Shown: piece after piece, positions 13,239 to 62,697 of the stretch
How the letters are laid out: every line of letters starts with the position of its first letter
How positions within the stretch are numbered: position 1 is the first letter of the stretch
Assembly (NCBI GenBank): GCA_050186075.1
Contig: JBFWYU010000006.1
Location: 77,291 to 141,290 of the forward strand
Length of the DNA: 64,000 bases
Direction of reading: 5' to 3'
Source: Bacteroidia bacterium
GTDB taxonomy: Bacteria; Bacteroidota; Bacteroidia; SXHM01
Notes under the pieces: model-generated
Databases searched by the model: none
The model's input: the letters and a program-made list of their open reading frames with translations, nothing else
Told to the model about the DNA's origin: nothing
Position numbers and translations under genes: made by a program

Positions 13239-13310
13239 GGCCCGTTCGTCTAGGGGTTAGGACGTCAGGTTTTCATCCTGGTAACAGGGGTTCGATTCCC
13301 CTACGGGCTA
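13239..13310 (+). tRNA. tRNA-Glu: tRNA-Glu (anticodon TTC)
   Basis: Cloverleaf folded by eye: acceptor GGCCCGT/ACGGGCT, anticodon stem CAGG/CCTG with loop TTTTCAT (anticodon TTC), T-loop GGTTCGATTCC. CCA is not encoded. Confidence 0.9.
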
Positions 13311-13318
13311 CACAAATC

Positions 13319-49027: not shown

Positions 49028-49068
49028 TTGATTTCGTTTTATTGCAGGCAAGGGACAAAATCTTTTGC

Positions 49069-51135
49069 CTATTGCCCGCCCGGGTGATACACTTTCTCTG
49101 CGTTTTGTTTTATTTTTTCCCAGTCAAAGGTCATGGTTTTGAATTGTTCTTTGCTGAACAGTTCCATCTGGTCGGTATAGTGTTTGCTTTGCGGATGCGA
49201 AGATGCACCGTAGGCATTTACCGAATTTATTTCCACTCCGGTTTTTGAATATTTATTTACCTGAATGTAGCCATCGCCAGCGGTTACGCGCCAGATGCCT
49301 TTTTTCTTGTCAAACAGTTTGGAGTCGGTTGCGCGCGATACTTCGCGCAATCCGCTGGCGGCAAAACTTGCGTTGCCGCGAATCATGCGTTGAATATCGC
49401 CCAGCTTTATATCAATGGTTCCGTATTTGCGCAGCATAAATTTGCGGGTGTGGCGAAGCGCATTCACCAGTTCGGTTTCGTGAAGCGGTTCTTTTTTAAT
49501 CATCAGAAATGCAAAGGGTACTTTCCATTCTTTCATCAGTTTTTCGTGCATAATCATAGCTACTGCCGCCTCTTTATTTTCTGTTTCACCGCTGCGGTTC
49601 CATTGTTTCAGTTTTTGAATTACATCGGCTATGTCGGGATATTTTTTTTCGTCTAATTCAAATGCTGTTGTAAAATTGCGGGCATAGCTTCCGCTTTGCG
49701 AATAGCTTTTATCGAACTTGATGCGAAGAAAATCCTGCCATGTAAATTTTCCATTTACTTCTGCGAGCAACTCAGCAAAGCGCTCGCCCCTGTTGTAGTT
49801 AAACTGCTGAATGCCGATAAAACTTCCGGGCCATGCACACTCTTTACCGCTGACTGAATATTGCGTTTGATTGCAGCTGAAGAGGTAGCCGCAGCTTGGG
49901 TTTAGCAGTGATGGTTTGCGCTCATAGGGCACTAAGGAATTCCATTTGTAGTTAGAGGTGTTGGCCGTAATGGGTGTATTCCAGTTGAGGGTTGAATCGC
50001 GGAGGGGAACCTGCCCACCGCTCTGGTAAAAGATAGTGCCGTCAACATCGGCATAGGTAATGTTGAACAGGGGAATGGCTTCCATTTTTAAGGCGGTTTC
50101 AAATTCCTGAAAGTTGCTTGCCTTGTTCATGCGAAACCATTGTTCGGTGGCGCGCAAATCCATTGCTCCGGGGAAACGAATGGCATACCATCCGTGCTTT
50201 GACTGAAACACAGGGCCATATTCGCAGGTGCGGATCTTTTTAGTAATGCCGATTTTACCAATTCCTGTTTTTATTTTCAGGTGTGCTTTTTTGGTTTTAA
50301 ATGTTTGCCATTTTCCGTCATACAGGTATTTATTGCCTTTGTGTTTCAGTTTATAGATGTCGCCAAAGGTGTGGTAGTTGGTGGTGTGTGCCCATCCTAA
50401 CTTCTGGTTGCTGCCTACAAATATGGTAGTGCCACCGGGAAAAAGGCCTCCTATAATATCCCAGCCTTCATCGCTTTTGATGTGTGCCTCGTACCAGGCA
50501 AAGCGCCCTTCAATGGGTTGATGCGAGTTGATGAGCAGCCATGCTTTGCCATCGTTGGTGCGCGTGGGTGCTATGGCCATGGAATTAGAGCCCACCTCGT
50601 TGGGCTGATGCAATAATTGAATGTGATTGTCTTTAATGGATTTGAGTGCCATGCCCGCACCTGCAAAAAGGGTAAGTGTAAGCGTTGAGCCTTTTACCAT
50701 ATCGGTGGCTTTAAAGGGCAATGCTTTTTTAAGCAACACTTCATCGGGGTGCTGGGCTGCATAATCGTTTACGCCCTGGGTGTAGCCTTCCAGCACTTTT
50801 TTAAAATCAGAGGAAATAACGCGCTCGTAATTATTATCAACTAAGGTGTCGATTCCAAAAAACTGCAGACCAAAATCAAACAACACACCTTCTTTGCCGA
50901 GCACCTGACCTAACATGCCTTTTGCGACAAGCAGGTTTTGCTGTATGCTTTTAAAGTCGTCTTCGCAATGGGCGTAGGCTAAACCGTAGGCAGCTTCGGC
51001 ATCGGTGTGGCCATAGATGTGGGGCACTCCGAAACTGTCGCGGGCTATGGTAATGTTGGCAGGGTTTATCTGTGCACTGAGCCCGGGAGCAAAAACAAGG
51101 AATAGAAGAGAAAGGAGTAATTGGCGTTTTTTCAT
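49069..51135 (-). CDS. penicillin acylase family (Ntn-hydrolase, peptidase S45; possible AHL acylase) - paralog 2
   Basis: Signal peptide. N-terminal RDSFGVPHIYGHTDAEAAYGLAYAHCEDD aligns by eye with 33476..35575 at roughly half identity. Confidence 0.75.
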   Translation of the reverse strand: MKKRQLLLSLLFLVFAPGLSAQINPANITIARDSFGVPHIYGHTDAEAAYGLAYAHCEDDFKSIQQNLLVAKGMLGQVLGKEGVLFDFGLQFFGIDTLVDNNYERVISSDFKKVLEGYTQGVNDYAAQHPDEVLLKKALPFKATDMVKGSTLTLTLFAGAGMALKSIKDNHIQLLHQPNEVGSNSMAIAPTRTNDGKAWLLINSHQPIEGRFAWYEAHIKSDEGWDIIGGLFPGGTTIFVGSNQKLGWAHTTNYHTFGDIYKLKHKGNKYLYDGKWQTFKTKKAHLKIKTGIGKIGITKKIRTCEYGPVFQSKHGWYAIRFPGAMDLRATEQWFRMNKASNFQEFETALKMEAIPLFNITYADVDGTIFYQSGGQVPLRDSTLNWNTPITANTSNYKWNSLVPYERKPSLLNPSCGYLFSCNQTQYSVSGKECAWPGSFIGIQQFNYNRGERFAELLAEVNGKFTWQDFLRIKFDKSYSQSGSYARNFTTAFELDEKKYPDIADVIQKLKQWNRSGETENKEAAVAMIMHEKLMKEWKVPFAFLMIKKEPLHETELVNALRHTRKFMLRKYGTIDIKLGDIQRMIRGNASFAASGLREVSRATDSKLFDKKKGIWRVTAGDGYIQVNKYSKTGVEINSVNAYGASSHPQSKHYTDQMELFSKEQFKTMTFDWEKIKQNAEKVYHPGGQ

Positions 51136-51329
51136 AAACTGTTTATGCAGGTAATGGTGTGCAAAGAAAAGGGAATATGTTTATAAAGTCAAAAGGGAAA
51201 AATGGCAAAAGTCAGAAGTGAGGTTGGGGAAGGCAATATCGAATAATGAATGTAGAATAGCGAATGATAAAGTTGGAAGTTTAAAGAGTGCCATATAATG
51301 CAGCAGTAGCCGGGTGCTGCGCAAGGGGC

Positions 51330-51632
51330 TTATTTTAAATTCCGTTCTTTCAGGAGTTTTTCAAGGTCTTTGTTTCTTTTATTTTTAGGATCATTAACCA
51401 TTTTGTAAATAAAATACAATGGAATTAATGTAAGCATTCCCCAGGTGTTTTTAACAATACTGAAAAGTACAATGCCCGCTAAAAATCCAAGAAACAAAGC
51501 ATTAGTAATGGAAAATGATTTCATCTTTTTTGCTTCTTCTATTAATTCCTGGTCTGTTAATTCTGAAAGGTCTTTGTTTGCCATTATTTTTTTTCTTTTG
51601 GGTAGGTGCTGTTGTGCGTTCGTATTTTTCAA
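51330..51632 (-). CDS. small two-TM membrane protein, hypothetical
   Basis: 100-aa ORF with a hydrophobic core FLGFLAGIVLFSIV...MLTLIPLYFIY. 4-nt overlap with the upstream sensor-domain gene. The true start may be the internal MANKD. Confidence 0.35.
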   Translation of the reverse strand: MKNTNAQQHLPKRKKIMANKDLSELTDQELIEEAKKMKSFSITNALFLGFLAGIVLFSIVKNTWGMLTLIPLYFIYKMVNDPKNKRNKDLEKLLKERNLK

Positions 51633-52735
51633 AATTGCTTTTCAAACGTCTTTCCGTTAAACTTATATATGTTTCCGTCTGCCATACCAAACCATAATTC
51701 ACCTTTATTATCTTCAAAAATGGATAGGGCATTGTCATTGGTAAGTCCATCTTTCCTGGTGTAATTAGTCATCTTTACACCATCATATTTCCAAATTCCC
51801 GCATCTCTGTCTCCAAACCAGATATTACCTTTTCCATCTTCTGCAATGGTGAAAATGTGTTCGAGCGTGCCGGGCATTGATTTATCACCTTTTCTTCCGC
51901 TTGACGGGTGAATTAAGTTATTTTTTTCAGAAAAATTAATGATTGAATCACCCTCCTTCAGTAATACGCCTATTCCGTTATTACCAATCCAAAGCCGGCC
52001 TTTTGAGTCTTCGAAAATACTTCTGATGTGCAGCGGTGCAATAGTTCTGTCGAAGCCTAAGGTTTCATCATTGATGATTGCAAATTCGTTTCCGTTATAG
52101 CCAAAAACACCTGCGTAAGTAGCAAACCAAATCATATTGTTTTTTCCTTTAGCAATGCCGGTTACAGCAAATAAATTATCGTAATGATTAAGGACTTTAT
52201 GGGGTGGAAATGCTAAATAACTTAATTTTTGTCCATCGTATCTGTAAACTCCTTCTTTAATTCCAGCTTCAAACCAAAGGTCGTTATCTGATTTCATCCA
52301 TTGACCTTGCAATGGTTCATTGCTCTGAATAGGTAATTTAGTTTGTAATTTTTCTATGCCTGCTTTGGTGTGATTCACAATTTTTACCCCATCATAACTG
52401 CTCAGTCCCTGTTGAGTATTAAACCAAATAACACCTTCTTTGTCTTCCTGTATGTTGTGAATTTGATTGTCTGTCAATCCGTCATTACTATTATAGTAAG
52501 TGAATGATTTACCGTTGTAAACTGCAACTCCTTCCTGAAGACTTCCAAACCAATAATTGCCTTTACTGTCCTGAAAGATAGCACGTATTCCGGAAGTAAA
52601 TTTTAAGGTGTCGGCTTTTGAAGTCCTTACCAATTCAGATTTATTAACTTCTTTCTCGGTTGATTGCTTTTCACCGCACGAAAAGTTAAGTGTCAACAGG
52701 AGTATCAGGTAAATCAATTTTAATTTTTTGTTCAT
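51629..52735 (-). CDS. stand-alone two-component-regulator propeller (Reg_prop) ligand-binding sensor-domain lipoprotein
   Basis: Lipoprotein signal LILLLTLNFSCG. Repeated Reg_prop-type blades (GxxWFGTxxGVxxYNG, IWFNTQQGLSSYDG, LWIGNNGIGV, IWFGDRDAGIWKYDG, LWFGMADGNIYKF). No kinase domain. Start placed at the internal Met (the ORF extends to 52831). Confidence 0.6.
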   Translation of the reverse strand: MNKKLKLIYLILLLTLNFSCGEKQSTEKEVNKSELVRTSKADTLKFTSGIRAIFQDSKGNYWFGSLQEGVAVYNGKSFTYYNSNDGLTDNQIHNIQEDKEGVIWFNTQQGLSSYDGVKIVNHTKAGIEKLQTKLPIQSNEPLQGQWMKSDNDLWFEAGIKEGVYRYDGQKLSYLAFPPHKVLNHYDNLFAVTGIAKGKNNMIWFATYAGVFGYNGNEFAIINDETLGFDRTIAPLHIRSIFEDSKGRLWIGNNGIGVLLKEGDSIINFSEKNNLIHPSSGRKGDKSMPGTLEHIFTIAEDGKGNIWFGDRDAGIWKYDGVKMTNYTRKDGLTNDNALSIFEDNKGELWFGMADGNIYKFNGKTFEKQF

Positions 52736-52839
52736 TTCCGGTTTTCGAATATGACGCAGAACGTTTATTATGCAAAACAAACTTACCAAAACTTTCACTT
52801 TTTCATATTCATCCCATAGTATCCCGCACATTTTTCTCC

Positions 52840-53230
52840 GCTAAGAATCACTTTGAATCTAATGCTATAGCTTTTACACCATAAGAATCATTCTGAATCT
52901 AAGGCTATAACTTTTACAGCGTAAGAATCATTTTGAATCTAGGGCTATAACTTTTACACGTCCCCATTCATTTTGAATCTGAGGCTATTAAACTTATAGC
53001 CTTCGAGTCAATAATCAACTTAAGGCTGTAAAACTTATAGCGTTAAGTTGCATTTAGAATCCGATGCTGTAAGTTTTACAGCGTGTTTTTCAATATGTAA
53101 TTTTTTACTGTAATTTTTACACAGCAAGAATCAAATGGATTCTCAGCCTAGTAAAAGTTATAGCGTGAGATTCAAAAATTTTGGGATGCTATAAGTTTTA
53201 TAGCCTTAGATTCGGTTTATAAATCTCTGT
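52840..53230. repeat. complex ~40-bp tandem/inverted repeat region built from two motifs, ATT(C/T)TGAATCT and GGCTATAA(C/G)TTTTACAGCG, in both orientations
   Basis: Three clean head-to-tail copies (taagaatcat.ctgaatcta.ggctataacttttacagcg) are followed by about five further copies of the motifs in mixed orientation (e.g. ggctgtaaaacttatagcg, gatgctgtaagttttacagcg, gatgctataagttttatagcc). It occupies most of the 555-bp divergent intergenic region between 51629..52735 (-) and 53291..53740 (+). Confidence 0.75.
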
Positions 53231-53262
53231 TTTTATTTATCCTCAACTCTGTTTATTAATAC

Positions 53263-53270
53263 TACCTTTG
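53263..53270 (+). promoter_or_regulatory. -7 promoter box TACCTTTG upstream of the HGQPGH-repeat lipoprotein gene
   Basis: Exact TAnnTTTG match ~21 bp upstream of the ATG at 53291. Confidence 0.4.
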
Positions 53271-53290
53271 AAATCACAAACACAACACAA

Positions 53291-53740
53291 ATGAAAGGAT
53301 ACATTACAGCACTTTGCGCAGGCTCATTATTATTTTTCTCGTGCGCTAATGAACAGGAACCCGCAACTGACAAAACCGAAAGCACTACGCAGGGCGCAGC
53401 GCAAACCACTGCACCAACGGCAATGCCTCCGGCTACATCACCTGCTTTTAATCCCGGTCAGCAAACTGCAACACCGCAATCATCAGCACCCGTTGCAGCG
53501 GGCATGAACCCCGAACACGGGCAACCCGGCCACCGTTGCGATATTGCTGTAGGCGCACCGCTTAACTCGCCACCTGCTGCACAACCATCGGTAACTACCG
53601 CACCTGCTATTAATACACAGCCGGCAACGCAAGCGCCCGTAGCTACACCACCTACAGCCACTGCTCCGGGAATGAATCCTCCGCACGGACAACCGGGACA
53701 CGATTGTGCCGTTGCCGTAGGTGCTCCGTTAAATAAATAG
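53291..53740 (+). CDS. P/A/T/Q-rich lipoprotein with two copies of a (M)NPxHGQPGHxCxxAVGAPLN motif
   Basis: Lipoprotein signal ALCAGSLLFFSCANEQ. Two near-identical 21-aa blocks, GMNPEHGQPGHRCDIAVGAPLNS and GMNPPHGQPGHDCAVAVGAPLNK, separated by a Pro/Ala/Thr/Gln-rich linker. Confidence 0.55.
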   Translation: MKGYITALCAGSLLFFSCANEQEPATDKTESTTQGAAQTTAPTAMPPATSPAFNPGQQTATPQSSAPVAAGMNPEHGQPGHRCDIAVGAPLNSPPAAQPSVTTAPAINTQPATQAPVATPPTATAPGMNPPHGQPGHDCAVAVGAPLNK

Positions 53741-53754
53741 TAGCGTTTAGTTTT

Positions 53755-53950
53755 TTACCAACCTGAGTTGGGAATAAGAAAACGGTCAATAACAGGTCGC
53801 TCCTATGGAGCTGATTACGCTATTGTATGTTCATTTTCTACAAACAGGTCGCCTCTGAAGAGGCTTTGTTAAGCCCCGGAGGGGCTACCTGTTTGTAGCA
53901 ACAGGAATAAGCATACCGATTTTAGCTCCGTAGGAGCGACCTTATCTCTA
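53755..53950. repeat. nested inverted-repeat element: a 19-bp outer IR enclosing a 12-bp inner IR plus two short GC hairpins. Possible MITE or structured RNA.
   Basis: Outer arms aggtcgctcctatggagct (53793..53811) and agctccgtaggagcgacct (53923..53941), 18/19 complementary. Inner arms ctacaaacaggt (53838..) and acctgtttgtag (53887..). Hairpins gcctctgaagaggc and gccccggaggggc lie between them. A ccaacctgagttgg palindrome is at 53757. Confidence 0.6.
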
Positions 53951-53959
53951 ATCGCAAAC

Positions 53960-54196
53960 TCAGGGTACTAATTTAAGATATAGCTTTTCTACTTTTTCCC
54001 TCGCCCAGGGCGTGCGTCTTAAAAATTTAAGACTCGAGTTCAGCGATGGATTGGAGATAAAACATTTTATCCTCACACGTTCGCCCAGTTCTTCCCAGCC
54101 ATATTCTTCCACCAGACGTTCCAGTATGGTCTGCAATGTTATGCCATGCAGTGGATTATTGGGTTGCGGGTTGGCGGGTGTGTTGTTAGTATCCAT
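53960..54196 (-). CDS. DUF2132 (VF530-like) small protein
   Basis: 78 aa with ...[57 protein letters not shown], matching the conserved DUF2132 core as recalled. Confidence 0.5.
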
Positions 54197-54202
54197 ATCG
54201 CT

Positions 54203-54592
54203 TTACTTCAGGCGTTCTAAAACGCCTTTGCGTTTCACAATGTTTTTATAATCCCATTGAATATCGCGTGCTTTTTTCAGCCAGCGTTTCAGGTCCTTGG
54301 TGTTTACCTGGTCGGCAGAAGTGTAGCGCATTTCGGCTGCTTTAAAACTGCCTTCGTTTTTCAATCCTGCTTCGTCAAACGATTGTCCGCTCCAGAATAA
54401 TAAGCGTACCGCGTGTTTCAGTTTATGGTAGCCCGCAATCGGGTTTCCGTCCAGAAACCAAACCGGATGTGCATGCCATATCTTATTCTCGGCTTCGGGC
54501 AATGCCTTGCTGATTTCCTGCTCCAGTAAATCGCAGATGACTTTGTCTTCCGCTGCCTGTTTGTTGTTATAGGCTTGAATGTCTTTGTTCAT
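54203..54592 (-). CDS. DUF1801 (YdhG-like) domain protein
   Basis: Pattern ...ALPEAENKIWHAHPVWFLDGNPIAGYHKLKHAVRLLFW is typical of DUF1801. Start placed at the internal MNKDIQ (the ORF extends to 54613). Confidence 0.45.
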   Translation of the reverse strand: MNKDIQAYNNKQAAEDKVICDLLEQEISKALPEAENKIWHAHPVWFLDGNPIAGYHKLKHAVRLLFWSGQSFDEAGLKNEGSFKAAEMRYTSADQVNTKDLKRWLKKARDIQWDYKNIVKRKGVLERLK

Positions 54593-54599
54593 TTTCACG

Positions 54600-57155
54600 T
54601 TACTGAATAACAATCTTCCTGCTGAATTTTTCTTCGCCTGCGTTGATGCTTACCAGATAAACCCCGCCCGGCAAAGCTGCACGGTTAAGGTTTATGCGTT
54701 GAGCACCATAAAGTTTTCCTTTGTCTTCAGTGAAAACTTTTTGTCCTTTTATATCATATACATCCATTGTAACACTGCACATTTGTTCAAGGCTGAATGA
54801 AAGCGTTGTTGCCTCCGAAAAAGGATTGGGGAATATTTCCAGTTTTTGTAGCAACGTGTTTTCAGCCACCGAAACCAGAGGCTCATCGGTAATACCAAAA
54901 TCCCATGTTCCGCGTCCGTAGGTGCCAAAGCGCACCACATTTAATGAGGGAATATAATCAACGCTGGTATAATTCTGGTCGGGAGCGGTTACGCCTGCCA
55001 TATCAAACCATTCCTGCGTATTGAAATTATAACAATATGGTCCTACATCGGTTGCTGCAAACAGCAACAATTCGGTTGACGAAAGTTTTAAATCATTGAA
55101 CGATGTTTGCGGAATGTTATTGTCAATCGGTGAAAAAGTTTGTCCGTGATTTTCGGAAATAAATACACCGGCATTGCTGTAGCCGCTGCCACCAATAATT
55201 ACCCGGCCTAAATGTGTAGGCGAAGGAATAATCACATTCCCGCGAAAGTCGGGTACGTTAAATGTGTTGGACAAAGTCCATGTTTGTCCTTCGTCATCGG
55301 AATAAAAAAAGCGTCCGCGGTTGGTAAGTACATAGCGGTAGTTCCAGTCAATAGGTGAGTAGGCAACTGCCGTAATTTCATTGGTATTGTTGATGCTGAA
55401 ATTGTAAGGCAGTCGCTCGGCCTCCACATCACCGCTTAGGTGTTGCAGGTGCCAGAGGTATTGTCCGTTTACTGCTGAATCACCACCACCGGTGTAGGCA
55501 TAATTGTAATCATAAGGGTCGGCCATCATGGGCGCCATCCATTGCCATCCATCGCCCACAAAATCCCAGAAAGCAGAAAAATCACCAACATCAGCCGCCT
55601 CGGGATAATACATAGCAAAGCCGGGATAAACCGTCCACAGGCTGTTTCCGTCATCGCCCGAAACAATGCTGCCGTAGTCACCGCTGATACTTTGTTTAAA
55701 ACCTAATACTCCGCCCGAATCAACTCTGCATTTCTGAAAGCCCTGATCCTGGCTCCCCATGTATATGTAATTGGTGTTGGTGCGGTTGGTGTAGGTAGAA
55801 TAAAATTGTCCGGTGCGCATACCGTGTAGCGTAATGTTTTCAACCTGGTCCATTTGATTGTATGATTTATAAAGTCCGCCATCGGTTGAAATCATCGTTA
55901 CCTCGTTGCCGAGTGTATCATAGAATAAATCAATTCCGTCAATATCGGCATGAAGCGCATAACGTATATTGCCGTAATACTCATACCACTCGTTGCGCGG
56001 AAACCATCCTGCACCGGCATCGCCCGTAATGTGGAAGTTTACGGCACCAAAGTATAAACGATCAACATCGTTTAGCGAACATGCAAAACTGTTGCGTCCC
56101 CACAAACCGGCAGGTTCATCACCGGTATAATTCCAGTTCAATCCGCTGTTATCGCTGCGGTAAACCGCACCACCTGAAAGAACAGCAAGCTTTGCTGTTC
56201 CGTTGTTTTCTTCCAAACCTGTAATTACCGCCTCACCTCCCGAACTGCCGATGTCGGCTACAAACACAGGTTGTCCTGCATTGTCTAATTTATAAAAGTC
56301 GGCATCGTTAATCAGATAAACATTTCCGCTTGTGCCGTAGCGTGCAGTCCATATATCGGTATTGCCCGCCCATCCCGAATAGGAGGTAATGCGCGTAAAA
56401 CTCTCGCCCATATCATCCGAGCGATACAAAGCTGCAACGGGTTCCCATGCCGGGCCGTAATCCCATTCCAGCACTAAGGTGTAAAATAATTTGGGTTCAG
56501 TTGAAGTAACCACCACGCGAACAACATTACCCCAGTCAATCAGGCTTTCCAGACCTGTTGCGGTTTCCCACGTAAGGCCATCGTTGTCGCTGTAATAAAA
56601 ATATTTTCCTCCTGCCATGTAAAGGCGGTTTCCGTTTTGCAGTTCAAGGTGGCGAACAAAAATAATTTCGTTGCTCATGTAATCGTTCAGCGGTTGCCAG
56701 TCATCACCATCCAATGTACCCTTCCATAAAACTCCACCCGATGAGCCTGCATAAACAGCATTGGTTTCAAAATCAATATCGCAGGTGTGCATGCGGCCTG
56801 CAATATTGGTGCTGCCGCGCTCGCGCCATTCGCCTGTAAGCGAACCGTTACCCAGCACTTCTAAAATCTTTTCGTTTGATTTCAGTTGTCCTTTTTTGTA
56901 AAGTTCTTTGCGCAGCTGATTTCTGCTTTCTGCTCTTTCTTTGCGTGTTCTTTCGTCCATCGCTTTCCAGTCAACACCTTCGGCAGCGCCATGTTTTTTC
57001 TCCCACCATTCCTTGCGTCTTTGTTTCATTTCATCGTTCTCTTCAACTTCTGCCGGGGCAGGATGTTTTTTTGCGTCAGAGAAATATAACAAGCCACCCG
57101 CTGAAATAAGAATAAAGAAAAAGGCTGTACTGAAAAGTTGTGTTTTGTTCATCAT
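54600..57155 (-). CDS. secreted BNR/Asp-box repeat (sialidase/xyloglucanase-like beta-propeller) protein with T9SS type-A C-terminal sorting domain
   Basis: Signal/anchor. Multiple Asp-box repeats (SDNDGLTW, SDDMGESF, SDNSGLNW, SDDEGQTW, SENHGQTF). C-terminus LEIFPNPFSEATTLSFSL...GGVYLVSINAGEEKFSRKIVIQ matches the T9SS CTD pattern. 4-nt overlap with bshA. Confidence 0.65.
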   Translation of the reverse strand: MMNKTQLFSTAFFFILISAGGLLYFSDAKKHPAPAEVEENDEMKQRRKEWWEKKHGAAEGVDWKAMDERTRKERAESRNQLRKELYKKGQLKSNEKILEVLGNGSLTGEWRERGSTNIAGRMHTCDIDFETNAVYAGSSGGVLWKGTLDGDDWQPLNDYMSNEIIFVRHLELQNGNRLYMAGGKYFYYSDNDGLTWETATGLESLIDWGNVVRVVVTSTEPKLFYTLVLEWDYGPAWEPVAALYRSDDMGESFTRITSYSGWAGNTDIWTARYGTSGNVYLINDADFYKLDNAGQPVFVADIGSSGGEAVITGLEENNGTAKLAVLSGGAVYRSDNSGLNWNYTGDEPAGLWGRNSFACSLNDVDRLYFGAVNFHITGDAGAGWFPRNEWYEYYGNIRYALHADIDGIDLFYDTLGNEVTMISTDGGLYKSYNQMDQVENITLHGMRTGQFYSTYTNRTNTNYIYMGSQDQGFQKCRVDSGGVLGFKQSISGDYGSIVSGDDGNSLWTVYPGFAMYYPEAADVGDFSAFWDFVGDGWQWMAPMMADPYDYNYAYTGGGDSAVNGQYLWHLQHLSGDVEAERLPYNFSINNTNEITAVAYSPIDWNYRYVLTNRGRFFYSDDEGQTWTLSNTFNVPDFRGNVIIPSPTHLGRVIIGGSGYSNAGVFISENHGQTFSPIDNNIPQTSFNDLKLSSTELLLFAATDVGPYCYNFNTQEWFDMAGVTAPDQNYTSVDYIPSLNVVRFGTYGRGTWDFGITDEPLVSVAENTLLQKLEIFPNPFSEATTLSFSLEQMCSVTMDVYDIKGQKVFTEDKGKLYGAQRINLNRAALPGGVYLVSINAGEEKFSRKIVIQ

Positions 57156-58279: not shown

Positions 58280-58342
58280 TTATAGATATTGTGAATATTG
58301 AAAATGATTGTAAAGATTGAAAAAAATAGTTGGTAAAAAAAG

Positions 58343-58368
58343 GAAAGCCCCGCATTTCTGCGAGGCTT
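58343..58368 (-). terminator. rho-independent terminator immediately downstream (minus strand) of the tRNA-Val 3' fragment. Probably the ancestral tRNA-Val terminator.
   Basis: Stem aaagccccgca/tgcgaggcttt (10/11 paired) followed on the minus strand by a T-run. Confidence 0.5.
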
Positions 58369-58369
58369 T

Positions 58370-58431
58370 GTGGGAGCTACTGGGTTCGAACCAGTGACCC
58401 CCTGCTTGTAAGGCAGGTGCTCTGAACCAGC
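58370..58431 (-). repeat. 62-bp direct repeat, the 3' portion of tRNA-Val including CCA: attR of the integrated islet
   Basis: gtgggagctactgggttcgaaccagtgaccccctgcttgtaaggcaggtgctctgaaccagc is identical to 62622..62683 within the intact tRNA-Val. The sequence diverges immediately 5' of the D-arm. Confidence 0.85.
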
Positions 58432-58577
58432 CAATATGCTGATTTTTATCAAGATCCTCAGAGAAGCTGCGGGGATTTGCAGATTTTTTGCAGGTGAAAG
58501 CTTGGTTTATAATGATTTAATCACAGTAAGGGGTTGACTAAAACAATTGTTGATCTTGAATATTATCTGCAAGGAAG

Positions 58578-59411
58578 TTAGTTGGTGCAGTTTAGCTCAA
58601 TTCTAAAATCATCTTCAGGTTCTGCATCATCAGAACAGTTAATGGGGGCTCCATTATCATCTAAGCAAAATTCTTTTGGACCAACCTGACCTATAACAGT
58701 ACCATCTCCATCAGTAATTTTTACAGTTGCTAAAGTTGCCCAATTACTTCCACCGTTATCTACATTTATTGCAAATGGGAAATCAACAATGTAGCTGTAA
58801 GTGTGCAAACTCTGAGCAAAATTTTGTGATACTGTTTGGCTCCATGTGGTTAAGCCTGTCATATCGACTGGTTGAGTAATACCATTATCATCAGTATAAC
58901 TTATATATAATCTACTTCCACCTGCCCCAAGTGGAATAGGATTATTAAATTCAACAGAATATGTAAAACTACAGGTTGTATACAGGTCTGAATAATTTTT
59001 TTCTAACTGATATATTTTTTCAAACTGCCCGTCATCGTAGTTCTTTAAAGTTAAACTGTTATTTGTTTGGTTTAATATATGGTATTGCCAACCAGCCAAA
59101 GTAATGTAAGGAGAAACTGCGCTCCATGGCATAACTGTGGGGTCGCAGCTATACAACCCATTTTCACAATAGAAATGCCCTCCATATGGATTACTGCTAA
59201 ATTTTACTTTACAATGAGCTGTATCTGTGGATGTTTCTACTTTAACACACTCTGCTGAAGTGTTTAAAGGGTCGGTGACGGTTTTTCTTTTAATGTACCA
59301 AGTTCCTACAAGCCCTTGCTCAAAAGAAGATGGTGTGTTACCCGAGTTGGGGTTACAACTTGTTAATAAGCCAACAATAAGTATAAGGAGAGTTACTGTT
59401 TTTGCTTTCAT
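58578..59411 (-). CDS. islet cargo: Cys-rich lipoprotein with N-terminal lipocalin-like signature
   Basis: Lipoprotein signal LLILIVGLLTSCNPNS. GTWYIK lipocalin-like motif. Ten or more Cys residues. No catalytic motif recognised. Confidence 0.5.
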   Translation of the reverse strand: MKAKTVTLLILIVGLLTSCNPNSGNTPSSFEQGLVGTWYIKRKTVTDPLNTSAECVKVETSTDTAHCKVKFSSNPYGGHFYCENGLYSCDPTVMPWSAVSPYITLAGWQYHILNQTNNSLTLKNYDDGQFEKIYQLEKNYSDLYTTCSFTYSVEFNNPIPLGAGGSRLYISYTDDNGITQPVDMTGLTTWSQTVSQNFAQSLHTYSYIVDFPFAINVDNGGSNWATLATVKITDGDGTVIGQVGPKEFCLDDNGAPINCSDDAEPEDDFRIELNCTN

Positions 59412-59574
59412 GTTAAATGTGTTTGTGAAAAACCAATCAAATGTATAATATTTTCACAAGGCATGATATTGTCTCTGTAGCTGCAGGGAATTACATAGCT
59501 GCTTGCCAGTATAGTCTGGGTTCTAAAAATTAGTGCATCACCTCTCTTTGCAGAACATAACACAATCCTTGTGC

Positions 59575-59880
59575 TTACCCTATTCTTTTTAGGACATTCT
59601 TTTTTGCAAAAGCCTGTCTTTTTATCTTCTCATTTAACTCATACTCTTGTGGGTGTTTTTCTTTGATTATCTCACTTAGTTGAGAATATGCACAATCAGA
59701 AAGCGTAATGCGCCTTCTCCCATTGTAGTAAATCCTTTTAGTAGCTTTCCATAGTGATAATGGGTCTGCTTTAATCCATACCCACACTCTCTTGTAGATT
59801 AATTCATTGTCAATAACAAGAGGGGCTACATCTTTAAGCCTCAGCTCTCTAATAATTCTGGTTCTTCTTCTGAATTTCAT
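59575..59880 (-). CDS. islet cargo: small basic protein (possible DNA-binding/excision accessory factor)
   Basis: 101 aa, Arg/Lys-rich (MKFRRRTRIIRELRLKD...KRIYYNGRRRITL...). Sits between the ATPase and lipoprotein genes. Function is inferred from position in an integrative element only. Confidence 0.35.
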   Translation of the reverse strand: MKFRRRTRIIRELRLKDVAPLVIDNELIYKRVWVWIKADPLSLWKATKRIYYNGRRRITLSDCAYSQLSEIIKEKHPQEYELNEKIKRQAFAKKNVLKRIG

Positions 59881-60044
59881 TTTACTTGGTTAATAAAGTT
59901 ATTGGGCTCCACCATGGCGTCCTGCCTAAAAAATAACAAAAATTCACTGTAAAAGCAAATTGAGTTTTGAACAATCATGTAGACTTTTAAACATTAGGTA
60001 GTAACATTAAGAGAGCACAGTTTCCCATGCTCTCCTTTCCCGCG

Positions 60045-60728
60045 CTAATGTTGGTGTTTTGATGATCCATTCAAAGAAGGATTTACAGGTGAGTTTGATG
60101 CATTACACCATTCACAAATTTCCCTGCCCAAATTCTCATTTAATACTATCTCACTCATATTATAGAAAACTTCAGTTCTGTCTTTAATCACAGAGGTAAT
60201 ATGCTTTTGGTTAAGTTCAAGCACAATGGTGAATTCATATTCAGTATCTTCACGCTGAACAGCCTTTAGCCCTACTTTTTCAGGAACCATTTTACCATTT
60301 TTATCCAGAATGATATATTCTGTCTTGGCTCTCATTGTTGCTATTACATGTATATCACTTTTAAGAATAGCCTGAATAAATGAATTATGCCGTGGAGTAA
60401 CTTTAGACCAAGCTGCAAATGAATTTCCAGGGATTTTGCTGTGAATATCCAATATTCCTCCATCACCTGACCATTCTGCTGAGAGAGTGTCAATAATCAG
60501 GCATTTATAGCCGTTCTTAACTGCAAGGTCAATAGCTTCTACATAATGCTCAGGAGAGTATGGTGCTGTTAAATTCAATACAGAGTATTCTCCTAAATGT
60601 GAATAAAGATGGGATGAACCATTCTCAGTGTCAATTACTGCAATCTTATTCCAATCTCCTGTAATTCCATAAGCTAATAGCAATGCTGAAAATGTTTTAC
60701 CTGAACCAGAAGAGCCTTGTAAGGTCAT
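60045..60728 (-). CDS. islet cargo: RecA-fold P-loop ATPase, AAA_24/Sak4-like
   Basis: Walker A GSSGSGKTFSAL, Walker B KCLIIDTLSAEW, ~230 aa with a C-terminal CEWC pair. Start placed at the internal MTLQG (the ORF extends to 60773). Confidence 0.55.
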   Translation of the reverse strand: MTLQGSSGSGKTFSALLLAYGITGDWNKIAVIDTENGSSHLYSHLGEYSVLNLTAPYSPEHYVEAIDLAVKNGYKCLIIDTLSAEWSGDGGILDIHSKIPGNSFAAWSKVTPRHNSFIQAILKSDIHVIATMRAKTEYIILDKNGKMVPEKVGLKAVQREDTEYEFTIVLELNQKHITSVIKDRTEVFYNMSEIVLNENLGREICEWCNASNSPVNPSLNGSSKHQH

Positions 60729-61237
60729 TTTAATTTTGCAGCTGTTCCTTGCTGCTTTGTGAAAGTGTTCCATAGTTTAAATTTTTAAGGTTTATAATCC
60801 TTCACAGTGAGGGGTTGGCAAAAAAAGACAGAATACAGGGGTCAACCTTTGCAAGGCTTAACACTCCTATATGCTGTCAGGCTGTTATCTTCAGTGTTTT
60901 TTATTAACGGAGAAAAGGCTCAAGAAACAGGCAAAGAATACAACATACTCCGGATGAGGTTTATAGTAACCTTGAATTAAATAAACATACAAGTGGATTT
61001 TGGTTTTTATTCCCCTTTCGGCTGATTATTAAACTCAACAATAATCTCATAGGGGGTGACCACCCTTTTATAAGTAAGTGGGGGTAGTCAGTGAGATAGT
61101 TCTATTAAACTCTAATGCTCTTAGCTATATACTGCCCGTAAATTTTAAAAGTTTAAATTTTTTGGGTAAAAATTATTTTTCACAACAACAACACACGTAG
61201 GGTATCTACACTCACTCTTGAAAAAAGTAAGGGGTTG

Positions 61238-62470
61238 TTAATCCCCTTTACTTCTTCTCATTACAGCATAGCATACATTCTCATTAAGATTATCAATATG
61301 CTCCAAGTCATATGCTTCAAGATATATCCCTGTTACCTTTGAACCATAGCTGTGCCCTAATGCTTCTCCTATCAGGTCTTTGGAGAAGCCTAGCTGCTTT
61401 GCAATATTTGCTGAAGAGTATCTGAAACAATACCCAGTCAGCTTCTCTTTGCAGCTAATGATATTACCAATCTTTTCAAGATGATTGTTGTAGACCTTAT
61501 TAGCTTGCTTAATCTCCTTTATCAGTCTTTCACCGTCTTGCAGATGCTCTTGTTTGATTTTACCTAACAGTGTGCTTTCACTTCTTCCATGGAAATAGTT
61601 GATGACTTCCATTGCTTCAGGTAAAAGCTTTATGGAATACTGCCTCTTGGTCTTGGCTCTGCTGTAAAATATTCTTCCGTGTTGTAGCTGTTCTTTACTC
61701 AGAAGAACCATGTCTGTGAAGTTTATTCCAATTAGCATGAACATCAGTTTTCCCATCATCCAACTATCATAGAGAAGTGAAGAAGTTTCAAGCTTCAGAT
61801 TGAAATACTTCTGCAATTCATCCAATGTTAATACCCTTGGCTTGGTGGCTTCTTTCCTGATAATAAAGTTTCTAAAGGGGTAATGCTCAAAAGCAACCTG
61901 TTTAGAGTTAATTGCTTTGTTATAAATTGCCCTCAGTGTCCTTAAGTATAAGCTAATGGTGTTTAACTTATTTCCTTTAGCCAATAACTCCGCTTCCAAT
62001 TCTTTGAGATAACTGAAGTCTATCTTCTCAAAAGGGATTTGCATGTTGTCAATCTTTTGCAGTGCTGTAAGTGTCTCACTGTAGATATTTGCATTCCCGT
62101 TTCTGTTACTCTTCCTCAGCAGTAAAATCTCATTCTCCCAAAACTCAATAACTGTTTTCTTCTTTGCAGAACCTGACAATATGTAGTCCTTTAGGTTCTG
62201 AACATTACCTGTAGAGGGATAGTCCTTCTCAAAAGCAATGATTTTACTCAGCAATGCAATTTCATGCTCTTTAATTTTTCTGCTGAGTTCTTCGTGAGCT
62301 GTAATATCCTTTTTCAAGGAGTGTGTTCTACTATTCCAATAATTTTCAGGAATGGAGATACCTGTGGGTATGTCTCTTGATTGCCCATTCAAGGAAATCC
62401 TGAATACTAATGGATAGGTTTTGTTTGTCTTTGCCCTTCTTGTATCAAGGGTTAATTTTAGTGATGCCAT
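61238..62470 (-). CDS. tyrosine-type site-specific integrase (Bacteroidetes phage-integrase family with N-terminal arm-binding domain)
   Basis: N-terminal arm-DBD-like MASLKLTLDTRRAKTNKTYPLVFRISLNG. C-terminal catalytic region with ...GHSYGSKVTGIYLEAYD containing the presumed nucleophilic Tyr. Adjacent to the tRNA. Confidence 0.85.
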   Translation of the reverse strand: MASLKLTLDTRRAKTNKTYPLVFRISLNGQSRDIPTGISIPENYWNSRTHSLKKDITAHEELSRKIKEHEIALLSKIIAFEKDYPSTGNVQNLKDYILSGSAKKKTVIEFWENEILLLRKSNRNGNANIYSETLTALQKIDNMQIPFEKIDFSYLKELEAELLAKGNKLNTISLYLRTLRAIYNKAINSKQVAFEHYPFRNFIIRKEATKPRVLTLDELQKYFNLKLETSSLLYDSWMMGKLMFMLIGINFTDMVLLSKEQLQHGRIFYSRAKTKRQYSIKLLPEAMEVINYFHGRSESTLLGKIKQEHLQDGERLIKEIKQANKVYNNHLEKIGNIISCKEKLTGYCFRYSSANIAKQLGFSKDLIGEALGHSYGSKVTGIYLEAYDLEHIDNLNENVCYAVMRRSKGD

Positions 62471-62619
62471 AGCTGCTGTTTTTTGCAGCTTTCACTCTTA
62501 AAAAATTTGCAGGTGGTTTGCAGGTGGATTTCTCCTTTCTCTGATAAGACACTATTTAATCTCAAAAGAGTTAAAAAGCAAGAAGCCCCACAATACTGAA
62601 TATTGCAGGGCTTTCATTG

Positions 62620-62697
62620 TGGTGGGAGCTACTGGGTTCGAACCAGTGACCCCCTGCTTGTAAGGCAGGTGCTCTGAACCAGCTGAGCTAAGCTCCC
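62620..62697 (-). tRNA. tRNA-Val: tRNA-Val (anticodon TAC), CCA encoded. Integration target of the islet.
   Basis: Minus-strand sequence GGGAGCTTAGCTCAGCTGGTTCAGAGCACCTGCCTTACAAGCAGGGGGTCACTGGTTCGAACCCAGTAGCTCCCACCA folds as a cloverleaf. Anticodon loop CTTACAA gives TAC. Confidence 0.9.

Follow-up and report, generated by a model that had tools for sequence, protein, structure and literature searches.

The described elements closest to the locus analysed here are the mobilisable elements of Bacteroides, NBU1, NBU2, Tn4555 and Tn5520. The insertion site of NBU1 and NBU2 is the 3' end of a tRNA gene, and Tn5520, at about 4.7 kb, is similar in size to the islet reported below. The likeness lies in an integrase of the IntCTnDOT-type subgroup, which has an arm-binding domain at the N terminus, a core-binding domain of SAM-like type and a non-canonical placement of the first catalytic Arg, and helper dependence for transfer would be common to all. 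In contrast to the islet, in which none of these is detectable, the four elements encode a relaxase (Mob) and oriT, and NBU1 also has a primase. To our knowledge, NBU1, NBU2, Tn4555 and Tn5520 have no counterpart of the islet's AAA_24 ATPase, basic protein or conserved noncoding block. IntCTnDOT-type enzymes rely on an alternative Arg located downstream (PMC8138268). Tn5520 inserts into AT-rich DNA with low specificity and carries no cargo, and relaxase-less MGIs that borrow a helper relaxase are documented in other phyla (PMC5704250).

A second point of comparison is offered by the satellites PICMI (Vibrionaceae) and the marine VEIMEs, which likewise depend on a helper, carry an integrase, measure a few kb and have very few genes, none of them structural; the wider family of the islet also includes defence-type cargo, as many satellites do. 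Satellites of 5–6 kb with minimal gene sets are known, and those of the PICMI and VEIME type have been described with a primase or replication gene, AlpA/excisionase regulators and direct evidence of encapsidation (PMC10803314, PMC9618062). None of these was found for the islet, which belongs to another phylum and uses another integrase family.

Our locus lies in a 64-kb window, the whole stretch of DNA analysed, from an uncultured Bacteroidia bacterium; except for the two repeat copies, the features below are on the minus strand. We consider it most probable that the locus is a 4,252-bp non-autonomous integrative islet in tRNA-Val(TAC), a reduced mosaic member of the Bacteroidota tRNA islets. 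An intact tRNA-Val with encoded CCA (62620..62697; ARAGORN, Rfam RF00005 71.6 bits) adjoins a tyrosine integrase, and a repeat search returned one perfect 62-nt direct repeat at 58370-58431 (attR) and 62622-62683 (attL), with a spacing of 4252. The preliminary description had reported these features, and they were recovered here; its repeat proved perfect over 62 bp but is confined to 62622-62683 and does not extend across the whole of 62620-62697; it corresponds to tRNA positions 15-76, beginning in the D-loop and ending at the first C of CCA. The attR copy is a non-functional tRNA 3' fragment that scores as a partial tRNA (34.3 bits, Rfam). Because the 36-nt core of the repeat occurs at two sites in 64 kb, both of them att copies (0 expected), it is not a dispersed repeat. 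The terminator scan placed an islet-borne hairpin directly 3' of the restored tRNA (62583..62613), with equivalents 3' of the tRNA in the related islets L091, L010 and L012, and a second terminator-like hairpin with a T-run directly 3' of attR (58344..58369), which is probably the original tRNA-Val terminator, as had been proposed. The islet unit (58432-62621 plus one 62-bp repeat) is indeed far smaller than a prophage or ICE. It holds four intact, co-oriented ORFs (61238-62470, 60045-60773, 59575-59880 and 58578-59411) and has a GC content of 36.4%, against 41.3% in the remaining window.

The integrase (61238..62470, 410 aa) is of the IntCTnDOT type (phrog_1), with Arm-DNA-bind_5 and Phage_int_SAM_5 domains followed by a divergent catalytic domain that falls below the Pfam threshold (17.6 vs 27.1 bits). 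Alignment identified the residues R271-x-K273, Y346-x-x-x-R350, H373 and Y383; R271, K273, R350 and H373 are invariant across 13 integrase sequences and Y383 is present in 12, with Phe in L012. The R-H-R-Y set looked for in the preliminary description is therefore present only in part, the Arg of the canonical box I position being absent and the first His replaced by Tyr, with the alternative Arg and the other residues kept. This deviation does not refute integration, because it is common to the entire integrase clade, even to those relatives that have perfect att repeats on either side, and is documented for the IntCTnDOT subgroup. The low score of the catalytic domain and the missing canonical first Arg and His count against the integrative reading, the conservation of the catalytic residues among relatives in favour of it.

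Candidate arm-type integrase binding sites were found at both ends of the islet. On the P-arm, two CACCTGCAAA repeats with 11 bp phasing lie 36 nt upstream of the int ATG (62506..62526; motif scan and alignment), and a second 11-bp-phased CTGCAAA pair lies 45 nt inside attR in the orientation of the P-arm (58476..58496, P'-arm; motif scan). CTGCAAA-N4-CTGCAAA occurs twice in 64 kb, against 0.06 expected, and only at the islet ends. The three islets whose integrases resemble this one most closely (L091, 59% identical; L012, 58%; L010, 55%) keep both pairs in position and orientation, the P-arm pair being invariant in the alignment; two of the three sit in tRNA-Asn and one in tRNA-Met. An inverted repeat, AGCTGC-N8-GCAGCT, abuts the int start codon (62471..62490), where L091 and L012 have the stems GGCTACA/TGTAGCC and AGCTAC/GTAGCT. 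A terminator-like hairpin overlaps the int stop codon (61229..61248; terminator scan). With an att region that looks intact and arm-site pairs at both ends, these features agree with the earlier proposal that an integrase-encoding element inserted site-specifically within the 3' part of tRNA-Val.

The same architecture, running from tRNA through terminator, arm pair and int to a distal arm pair and a tRNA 3' repeat, was also observed in L010 (43-bp repeat, 9.8 kb), L012 (47-bp repeat, 9.9 kb), L009 (67-bp repeat, 6.6 kb), L089 (44-bp repeat, 7.5 kb) and L091. The present islet is the smallest seen among the family members examined. Its nearest counterparts are the undescribed AAA_24-DUF3871-(RadC) islets (L009-L088, L251 and L002), with which it shares an orthologous ATPase (65-72% identity); the closest loci also have the order tRNA, int, ATPase, long perfect tRNA-derived repeats, the integrase clade and arm motifs (L010 and L012), the noncoding block (L009, L011 and L012) and variable secreted-protein cargo. 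It differs from them in size (4.25 kb vs 6.6-9.9 kb in delimited relatives) and in the absence, with no remnants, of DUF3871, RadC and the C-terminal domain of the ATPase.

Two further components link the islet to another set of relatives. The 101-aa basic protein (59575..59880, pI 10.4), earlier described as small and Arg-rich, is indeed basic, and a homologue search placed it in a small uncharacterised family of tRNA islets, with relatives inside L089, L090 and L091. Its AF2 model (pLDDT 85.7) gave no fold match; the protein may serve as a recombination directionality factor or as a regulator. A noncoding block of ~125 nt (TATATAGCTAA ... C5 ... AAAAGGGTGGTCACCCCC; 61036..61159; nhmmer and alignment) has nhmmer matches at equivalent positions in L009, L011, L012, L075, L089, L090 and L091. 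Both the basic protein and the block recur in small tRNA islets with TIR or RES genes, and Abi_alpha is also found among the defence-type cargo of related islets.

The cargo of the present islet is an acidic lipoprotein of 277 aa (58578..59411; lipobox LLTSC19, 9 Cys). ORF and homologue searches assigned it to an orphan family with three homologues, all outside islets, and no Pfam, PHROG or PADLOC family was matched. The suggestion that it is lipocalin-like was not borne out: its sole resemblance is a signal peptide plus LVGTW motif, as in one annotated lipocalin lipoprotein, no lipocalin family was detected, and the all-beta AF2 model (pLDDT 58) has no fold match. A weak regex match to the Bacteroidetes -7 promoter box, TAcaTTTG, lies 27 nt upstream of the lipoprotein ATG (59438..59445) and is the only such motif in the islet besides that before the tRNA.

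The ATPase (60045..60773, 242 aa) has a RecA-like P-loop core (Pfam AAA_24, 8.2e-19), and its profile matches in the PDB are to RecA only. Among 6665 homologues the closest are about 70% identical and about 298 aa long; the protein here is without the ~55-aa C-terminal domain of these relatives but has all the residues that are invariant in the family alignment. DUF3871 directly follows the ATPase in 69 of 80 related loci, and RadC is nearby in 31. The sequence comparisons indicate that the protein is an orthologue of the Bacteroidota island ATPase normally coupled to DUF3871, and because both this partner and the C-terminal domain are missing, it may not function. These absences, together with unusually long spacers (464 and 164 nt) and the absence of transfer genes, could mean that the islet is a stranded remnant of a larger 6.5-10 kb AAA_24-DUF3871-RadC islet, now an immobile fossil passed on by vertical inheritance only. 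We regard this as possible but rather unlikely. All four ORFs are intact, tblastn recovered no remnant of RadC, of DUF3871 or of the missing ATPase C-terminus in any reading frame, short ATPase variants also occur in relatives, and the att repeats remain perfect over 62 bp with arm pairs and the int-proximal inverted repeat intact. Moreover, the basic protein and noncoding block shared with L089-L091 point to module exchange rather than simple decay.

The noncoding block bears on a further explanation, in which the islet would be mobilisable without a relaxase of its own (a non-canonical IME/MGI): once excised, it would be transferred by a Bacteroidota conjugative element resident in the same cell, whose relaxase would recognise the block as an oriT mimic. 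The block has no consensus RNA or ssDNA structure and no Rfam match, and it is conserved across islets that differ in integrase and cargo. It behaves as an element at the level of DNA, not RNA, and probably works as a site in double-stranded DNA, be it an operator, promoter, ori or oriT. The integrase subgroup is the one typically found in ICEs and IMEs of Bacteroidota, among them NBU1, Tn4555 and Tn5520, the precedent of relaxase-less MGIs in other phyla fits, and DUF3871 and the other partner genes of the ATPase family have no PHROG family, DUF3871 being nearly absent from phage records. However, DUF3871 is nearly absent from plasmids too, no oriT or nick-site homology was demonstrated, the 64-kb window shows no conjugative element, and the block can equally be read as a promoter or operator. 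We judge this explanation unlikely.

Still less probable, in our view, is a minimalist PICMI- or VEIME-like phage satellite, induced by a helper phage and packaged as concatemers in helper capsids, in which the RecA-like ATPase would aid replication or recombination. Small size, the precedent of minimal 5–6 kb satellites, the absence of structural genes, the defence-type cargo of related islets and an ATPase family common to many phages (phrog_1366, function unknown; 413 phage records) would all suit it. The preliminary description had called the ATPase Sak4-like, and it does share with phage Sak4 single-strand annealing proteins a RecA-like core (Pfam AAA_24) that bears Walker A and B motifs. 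Its best PHROG match is nevertheless phrog_1366 (1.8e-76), against 2.9e-08 for the Sak4 family phrog_124, no SSB or recombination gene lies beside it, and the usual genomic partner of its relatives, DUF3871, is essentially absent from phages; the protein is orthologous to an island ATPase and not to phage Sak4. ATPase relatives in IMG/VR do not exceed ~52% identity, whereas non-viral genome and metagenome contigs reach 65-72%. Searches of Pfam, PHROG and NCBIfam returned no primase or replication initiator, AlpA/Xis, small terminase or capsid-redirecting gene, and a cos or pac site was not identified.

An empty-site allele was not found. In 71 loci examined, bshA is never preceded by tRNA-Val; in the nearest relatives (BshA 90-96% amino-acid identity, ~76% nucleotide identity) homology ends 44 nt before attR. 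No evidence of excision or a circular form was obtained, the 4,250-bp Logan contig being exactly what is expected from a break of a k=31 de Bruijn graph at a 62-bp repeat. Although no empty site came to light and relatives do not conserve the synteny upstream of bshA, it is hardly credible that the tRNA segment was duplicated by local rearrangement around unrelated genes with no mobile element involved, given the integrase adjoining the tRNA, arm-site pairs unique to the islet ends, identical architecture around four further tRNA genes from unrelated genomes and the lower GC of the islet.

As an integrative islet, the locus would have arisen when a circular attP form, a tRNA-like core between P and P' arms bound by the N-terminal arm-binding domain of the integrase, recombined with the chromosomal tRNA gene. 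The crossover probably took place between the D-loop and the anticodon loop; in consequence, the tRNA 3' part, CCA and new terminator would now be supplied by the islet, with the old 3' fragment and its terminator displaced by 4.2 kb. The integrase, arms and ATPase are common to it and the AAA_24-DUF3871-(RadC) islets, the basic protein and noncoding block to it and islets with TIR or RES cargo. The ATPase probably takes part in replicating or recombining the excised or incoming DNA, and the basic protein probably acts as a directionality factor or regulator; we infer these roles and that of the noncoding block, for which fold and family comparisons gave no supporting match. The lipoprotein would be cargo and may be transcribed from a housekeeping-type promoter of its own. 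No relaxase, primase, terminase, packaging or capsid gene was found in the islet (Pfam, PHROG, NCBIfam), and cell-to-cell transfer would therefore need the help of a conjugative element or of a phage. The islet belongs to a compact and apparently undescribed tRNA islet family that is widespread in Bacteroidota and carries variable surface or defence genes.

The tRNA-Val(TAC) insertion and its perfect 62-bp repeats, both claimed in the preliminary description, were borne out by ARAGORN, Rfam and a repeat finder, and the insertion signature of the islet (58370-62697) is real. ARAGORN placed an intact tRNA-Val(tac) at 62620..62697 (-), scored at 71.6 bits by Rfam, and the repeat finder returned a single perfect 62-nt direct repeat at 58370-58431 and 62622-62683 (spacing 4,252 bp), whose 36-nt core occurs only at these two sites in 64 kb. 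The repeat covers tRNA positions 15-76 (D-loop through the first C of CCA); tRNA-Val is restored, and the direct repeats on either side of the element duplicate its 3′ part. A hairpin with a T-run (58369-58344, -) lies directly 3′ of the partial copy (attR), and a second hairpin (62613-62583, -) lies 3′ of the intact tRNA-Val, which holds the other copy (attL). Between the repeats there are four intact ORFs, all in the same direction as the tRNA, with the integrase gene (int, 61238-62470) starting 150 nt from the tRNA-Val 3′ end. The islet has a GC content of 36.4% versus 41.3% for the rest of the window; its flanking genes are bshA (TIGR03999, 2.7e-170) and folC, and a T9SS-sorted protein encoded nearby identifies the host as one of the Bacteroidota. 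The restored tRNA-Val encodes CCA, the CA part of which comes from islet DNA (62620-62623 versus 58366-58369); the original 3′ flank, now displaced, is ACAAA, and a host tRNA-Glu gene (13239-13314) also lacks an encoded CCA.

The 410-aa integrase matched Arm-DNA-bind_5 (PF17293, 2.1e-09) and Phage_int_SAM_5 (PF13102, 1.5e-13) in Pfam, with the catalytic domain PF00589 at 17.6 bits, under the Pfam cut-off of 27.1, and no match when the single sequence was compared with PDB sequences. An alignment with 12 integrases of related loci served to assess the catalytic R-H-R-Y residues, a set that was recovered in part (n = 13). The canonical box I Arg is absent from all 13 proteins, the window copy reading G-I-N250-F-T-D, and the HxxR box reads Y346-C-F-R-Y, with Tyr at the first-His position in 10 of the 13. 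R350, G372-H373 and the motif R271-x-K273-T are invariant throughout, and Y383 aligns with the nucleophile, a Tyr being present in 12/13. The first Arg is often missing in IntCTnDOT-subgroup integrases, where another Arg downstream serves instead (Smyshlyaev et al., PMC8138268). Both the domain set and the catalytic residues, with an alternative Arg, place the islet integrase in this subgroup; given the alignment and the alternative Arg described there, it is non-canonical but typical of its clade, members of which occur in elements bounded by perfect att repeats. On comparative evidence, the integration module is predicted to be intact. The one aligned integrase without the Tyr (L012, 7901-9124) has Phe in that column (TGIFLE versus TGIYLE) and may be catalytically dead, despite the perfect 47-bp repeats of its 9.9-kb tRNA-Asn islet.

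Candidate cis sites were found at both ends of the element. From the tRNA inwards, the islet has the terminator, a repeat pair CACCTGCAAA-C-CACCTGCAAA and an inverted repeat AGCTGC-N8-GCAGCT abutting the int ATG. At the other end, 45 nt inside attR, is a second repeat pair, CACCTGCAAA-A-AATCTGCAAA, oriented like the first. CTGCAAA-N4-CTGCAAA is present at just two places in the window (62506-62523 and 58476-58493), against a chance expectation of 0.06 occurrences. The three islets with the closest integrases (L091, 59% identity; L012, 58%; L010, 55%) have TGCAAA-N5-TGCAAA pairs at both matching positions and also a terminator 3′ of the tRNA; in L091 and L012 there is a stem at the int start as well, made of different bases. 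The islet L009 has an unrelated integrase and a different repeated motif. From this conservation, we infer that the CTGCAAA pairs are candidate arm-type sites. For another motif, AAGGGGTTG, enrichment was not significant.

An empty site was sought in 80 metagenome bshA loci, among them relatives of 90-96% amino acid identity, and tRNA-Val was present at the site in none of them; synteny with the bshA relatives ends at 58326. Exact-protein look-ups led to one sample only and likewise gave no empty site. A Logan contig (L001, 4,250 bp) looked like an excised circle, but was rejected as such since both its ends stop 30 nt inside a repeat (the 4,250-bp unitig being 4,190 unique bases and 2 × 30). 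The neighboring bshA Logan contig likewise ends 30 nt into the repeat; ends at this position in a 62-bp repeat are a k = 31 graph break and are uninformative on the circular form. Elsewhere in the window, a 5.5-kb segment (49040-54600) is missing in the two closest metagenomic relatives (L092 and L093), whose homology to the window jumps from ~54600 to ~49030. It encodes a penicillin amidase, a Reg_prop protein, a DUF1801 protein and small ORFs, and no mobility gene was seen in it.

The second islet gene encodes a 242-aa ATPase (60045-60773, -) that had been called Sak4-like. The RecA-like AAA_24 core holds (PF13479, 8.2e-19, with conserved Walker motifs GSSGSGKT and CLIID), but membership of the Sak4 family proper does not, as the protein matched phrog_1366 at 1.8e-76 and the Sak4-like phrog_124 only at 2.9e-08. 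Against solved structures, its profile matched RecA alone, weakly, over residues 64-149 (the Walker A to Walker B region). There are 6,665 homologs at E<1e-20, and the nearest, 65-72% identical, are ~298 aa long. All invariant columns are kept in the islet copy, which, compared with these relatives, is without a conserved C-terminal domain of ~55 aa.

In 80 ATPase loci fetched from Bacteroidota genomes, a DUF3871 gene lies directly 3′ of the ATPase gene in 69, and RadC is encoded nearby in 31. The closest loci share the order tRNA, int, (RadC), AAA_24, DUF3871, cargo and tRNA 3′ repeat, and include islets in tRNA-Ser (L009, 67-bp repeat, 6.6 kb), tRNA-Met (L010, 43-bp repeat, 9.8 kb) and tRNA-Asn (L012, 47-bp repeat, 9.9 kb), with T9SS-sorted proteins among their cargo. 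The islet shares the orthologous ATPase with this AAA_24-DUF3871-(RadC) cassette but lacks DUF3871 and the ATPase C-terminal domain, and tblastn found no remnant of DUF3871, RadC or the ATPase C-terminus in the window, islet spacers included. Relative to its closest kin, DUF3871 and RadC have been lost from the islet or were never present. PHROG has no family for DUF3871 or its partner genes; DUF3871 occurred in 2 of 50,697 phage records, both unverified fecal scaffolds, and once among 72,556 plasmid records, and literature searches gave nothing relevant on DUF3871 or AAA_24 in Bacteroidota mobile elements. A GenBank record, MT839478.1 (L002, “Bacteriophage sp.,” 4,253 bp), was considered as a free copy of the islet and rejected: it is a linear scaffold fragment with AAA_24-DUF3871-RadC, and as it has neither integrase nor tRNA the match in size is coincidental. 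This record, from human feces, is a Bacteroidales cassette fragment with no phage hallmark genes among its ORFs, and similar cassettes are found in IMG/VR contigs (L173-L189). The only plasmid record with DUF3871, Bacteroides finegoldii “plasmid 58” (L252, NZ_OY725960.1, 15,501 bp, circular), is typed as non-mobilizable. Alongside DUF3871 it has a pair of site-specific integrases, an R-M gene of Eco57I type and a lipoprotein labeled “lipocalin family”; it may not be a plasmid but an integrative element in its excised form. In L251 (6242-11676), a type II Cas9-Cas1-Cas2 locus adjoins a RadC-AAA_24-DUF3871 cassette whose ATPase shares 72% identity with that of the window.

The basic protein (101 aa, pI 10.4; 59575-59880, -) had no word-indexed homolog and no family match, and its AF2 model, although confident (pLDDT 85.7), matched no known fold. 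Exhaustive phmmer searches recovered ~10 relatives of ~100 aa each, and the two that could be placed both lie inside other small integrase islets: one in tRNA-Met (L089, 3938-11439; 44-bp repeat, 7,458 bp), which also encodes a TIR_2 protein, and one in tRNA-Asn (L091, 1-8365), which encodes RES-domain proteins. A noncoding block of ~125 nt between int and the ATPase gene (61036-61159, -), with the layout TATATAGCTAA ... C-tract ... AAAAGGGTGnnACCCCC, also recurs. Its homologs occupy the equivalent place in three ATPase islets (L009, 9175-9332; L011, 9203-9341; L012, 9188-9322), lie upstream of the ATPase gene in L075 (9812-9937), and are found just 3′ of the basic-protein gene in L089 (8462-8599), L090 and L091 (5536-5696). 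The block is conserved across islets differing in integrase and cargo, and the islet combines modules of two sub-groups. As a structured RNA or single-stranded DNA the block was rejected, with 0 pairs in RNAalifold, per-sequence z-scores mostly near 0, no Rfam match and no consistent ssDNA fold. The block is probably a double-stranded DNA site, and could be an operator, ori or oriT.

The 277-aa lipoprotein (58578-59411, -) has the lipobox LLTSC19, 9 Cys and a pI of 4.4. Its description as lipocalin-like found no support in sequence and fold searches: the lipobox and an LVGTW motif are all that it has in common with an annotated lipocalin lipoprotein, and there was no Pfam match at E<0.01, no family detected and no fold match (AF2 model of low confidence, pLDDT 58; best Foldseek E-value against PDB, 0.014). 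Three homologs were found, none of them in an islet (0/3). The closest (63% identity; L005, 169-3335) is translationally coupled behind an SF1-helicase-like ORF of >785 aa, with 4 nt of overlap at the stop of that ORF. This arrangement hints that the lipoproteins of the family may have a partner and not be simple surface proteins. A TAnnTTTG box 27 nt 5′ of the lipoprotein ATG points weakly to a promoter; a sigma-70 scan, with a model ill-suited to Bacteroidota, gave sites no more numerous than in shuffled sequence.

Among described systems, the nearest are the Bacteroides IMEs (NBU1, Tn5520; PMC5704250) and minimalist phage satellites (PICMI, VEIMEs). Searches of Pfam, NCBIfam and PHROG found no relaxase, primase, excisionase, terminase or capsid protein among the four islet proteins, and no replication initiator or AlpA/Xis-type regulator. 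The IMEs NBU1, Tn4555 and Tn5520 have their own relaxase (Mob), whereas the islet has none; PICI, PICMI and VEIME satellites have a primase or initiator with AlpA/Xis as well as packaging or capsid-hijack genes, and none of these genes was found in the islet. The best IMG/VR relatives of the ATPase are ~50% identical and lie in 20-80 kb contigs, with no close relative in that database. Judged by gene content, the islet falls outside both groups and cannot transfer unaided; if still mobile, it would be moved by a conjugative element or a phage.

Among the delimited members seen here of a modular family of Bacteroidota islets, this one is the smallest; no description of the family was found in the literature. 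Because related small tRNA islets carry TIR_2, RES or Abi_alpha proteins, the family may be a vehicle for anti-phage genes; the Abi_alpha islet, on a JGI 3300050046 contig, has genes for an HTH_17 protein and an AAA_25 ATPase as well. A possible, if on balance improbable, reading is that the islet and its relatives (among them L009-L012 and L089-L091) belong to an undescribed class of minimal Bacteroidota “hitcher” elements that have neither relaxase nor primase. The noncoding block would then be a helper’s handle, as a packaging site or a mimic of oriT. Incoming DNA would be established by the RecA-like AAA_24 ATPase, alone or together with DUF3871 and RadC, and cargo for the cell surface or against phage (lipoproteins, T9SS proteins, TIR, RES, Abi) would be shuttled from one tRNA gene to another.

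Small islands with an integrase only are thought to make up a large, poorly understood fraction of genomic islands, and their route of transfer is often unknown. The islet is a clean, fully delimited 4.25-kb case from the Bacteroidota in which candidate cis sites can be picked out, namely the core, the two pairs of arm sites and the noncoding block. It has ties to a widespread family centered on the uncharacterized AAA_24-DUF3871-RadC cassette and on a new small basic protein; TIR, RES or Abi defense genes are carried by some of the islets in that family. As it is small enough for synthesis, its integration, excision and helper dependence are directly testable, and such tests would give DUF3871 and its partners their first functional context.
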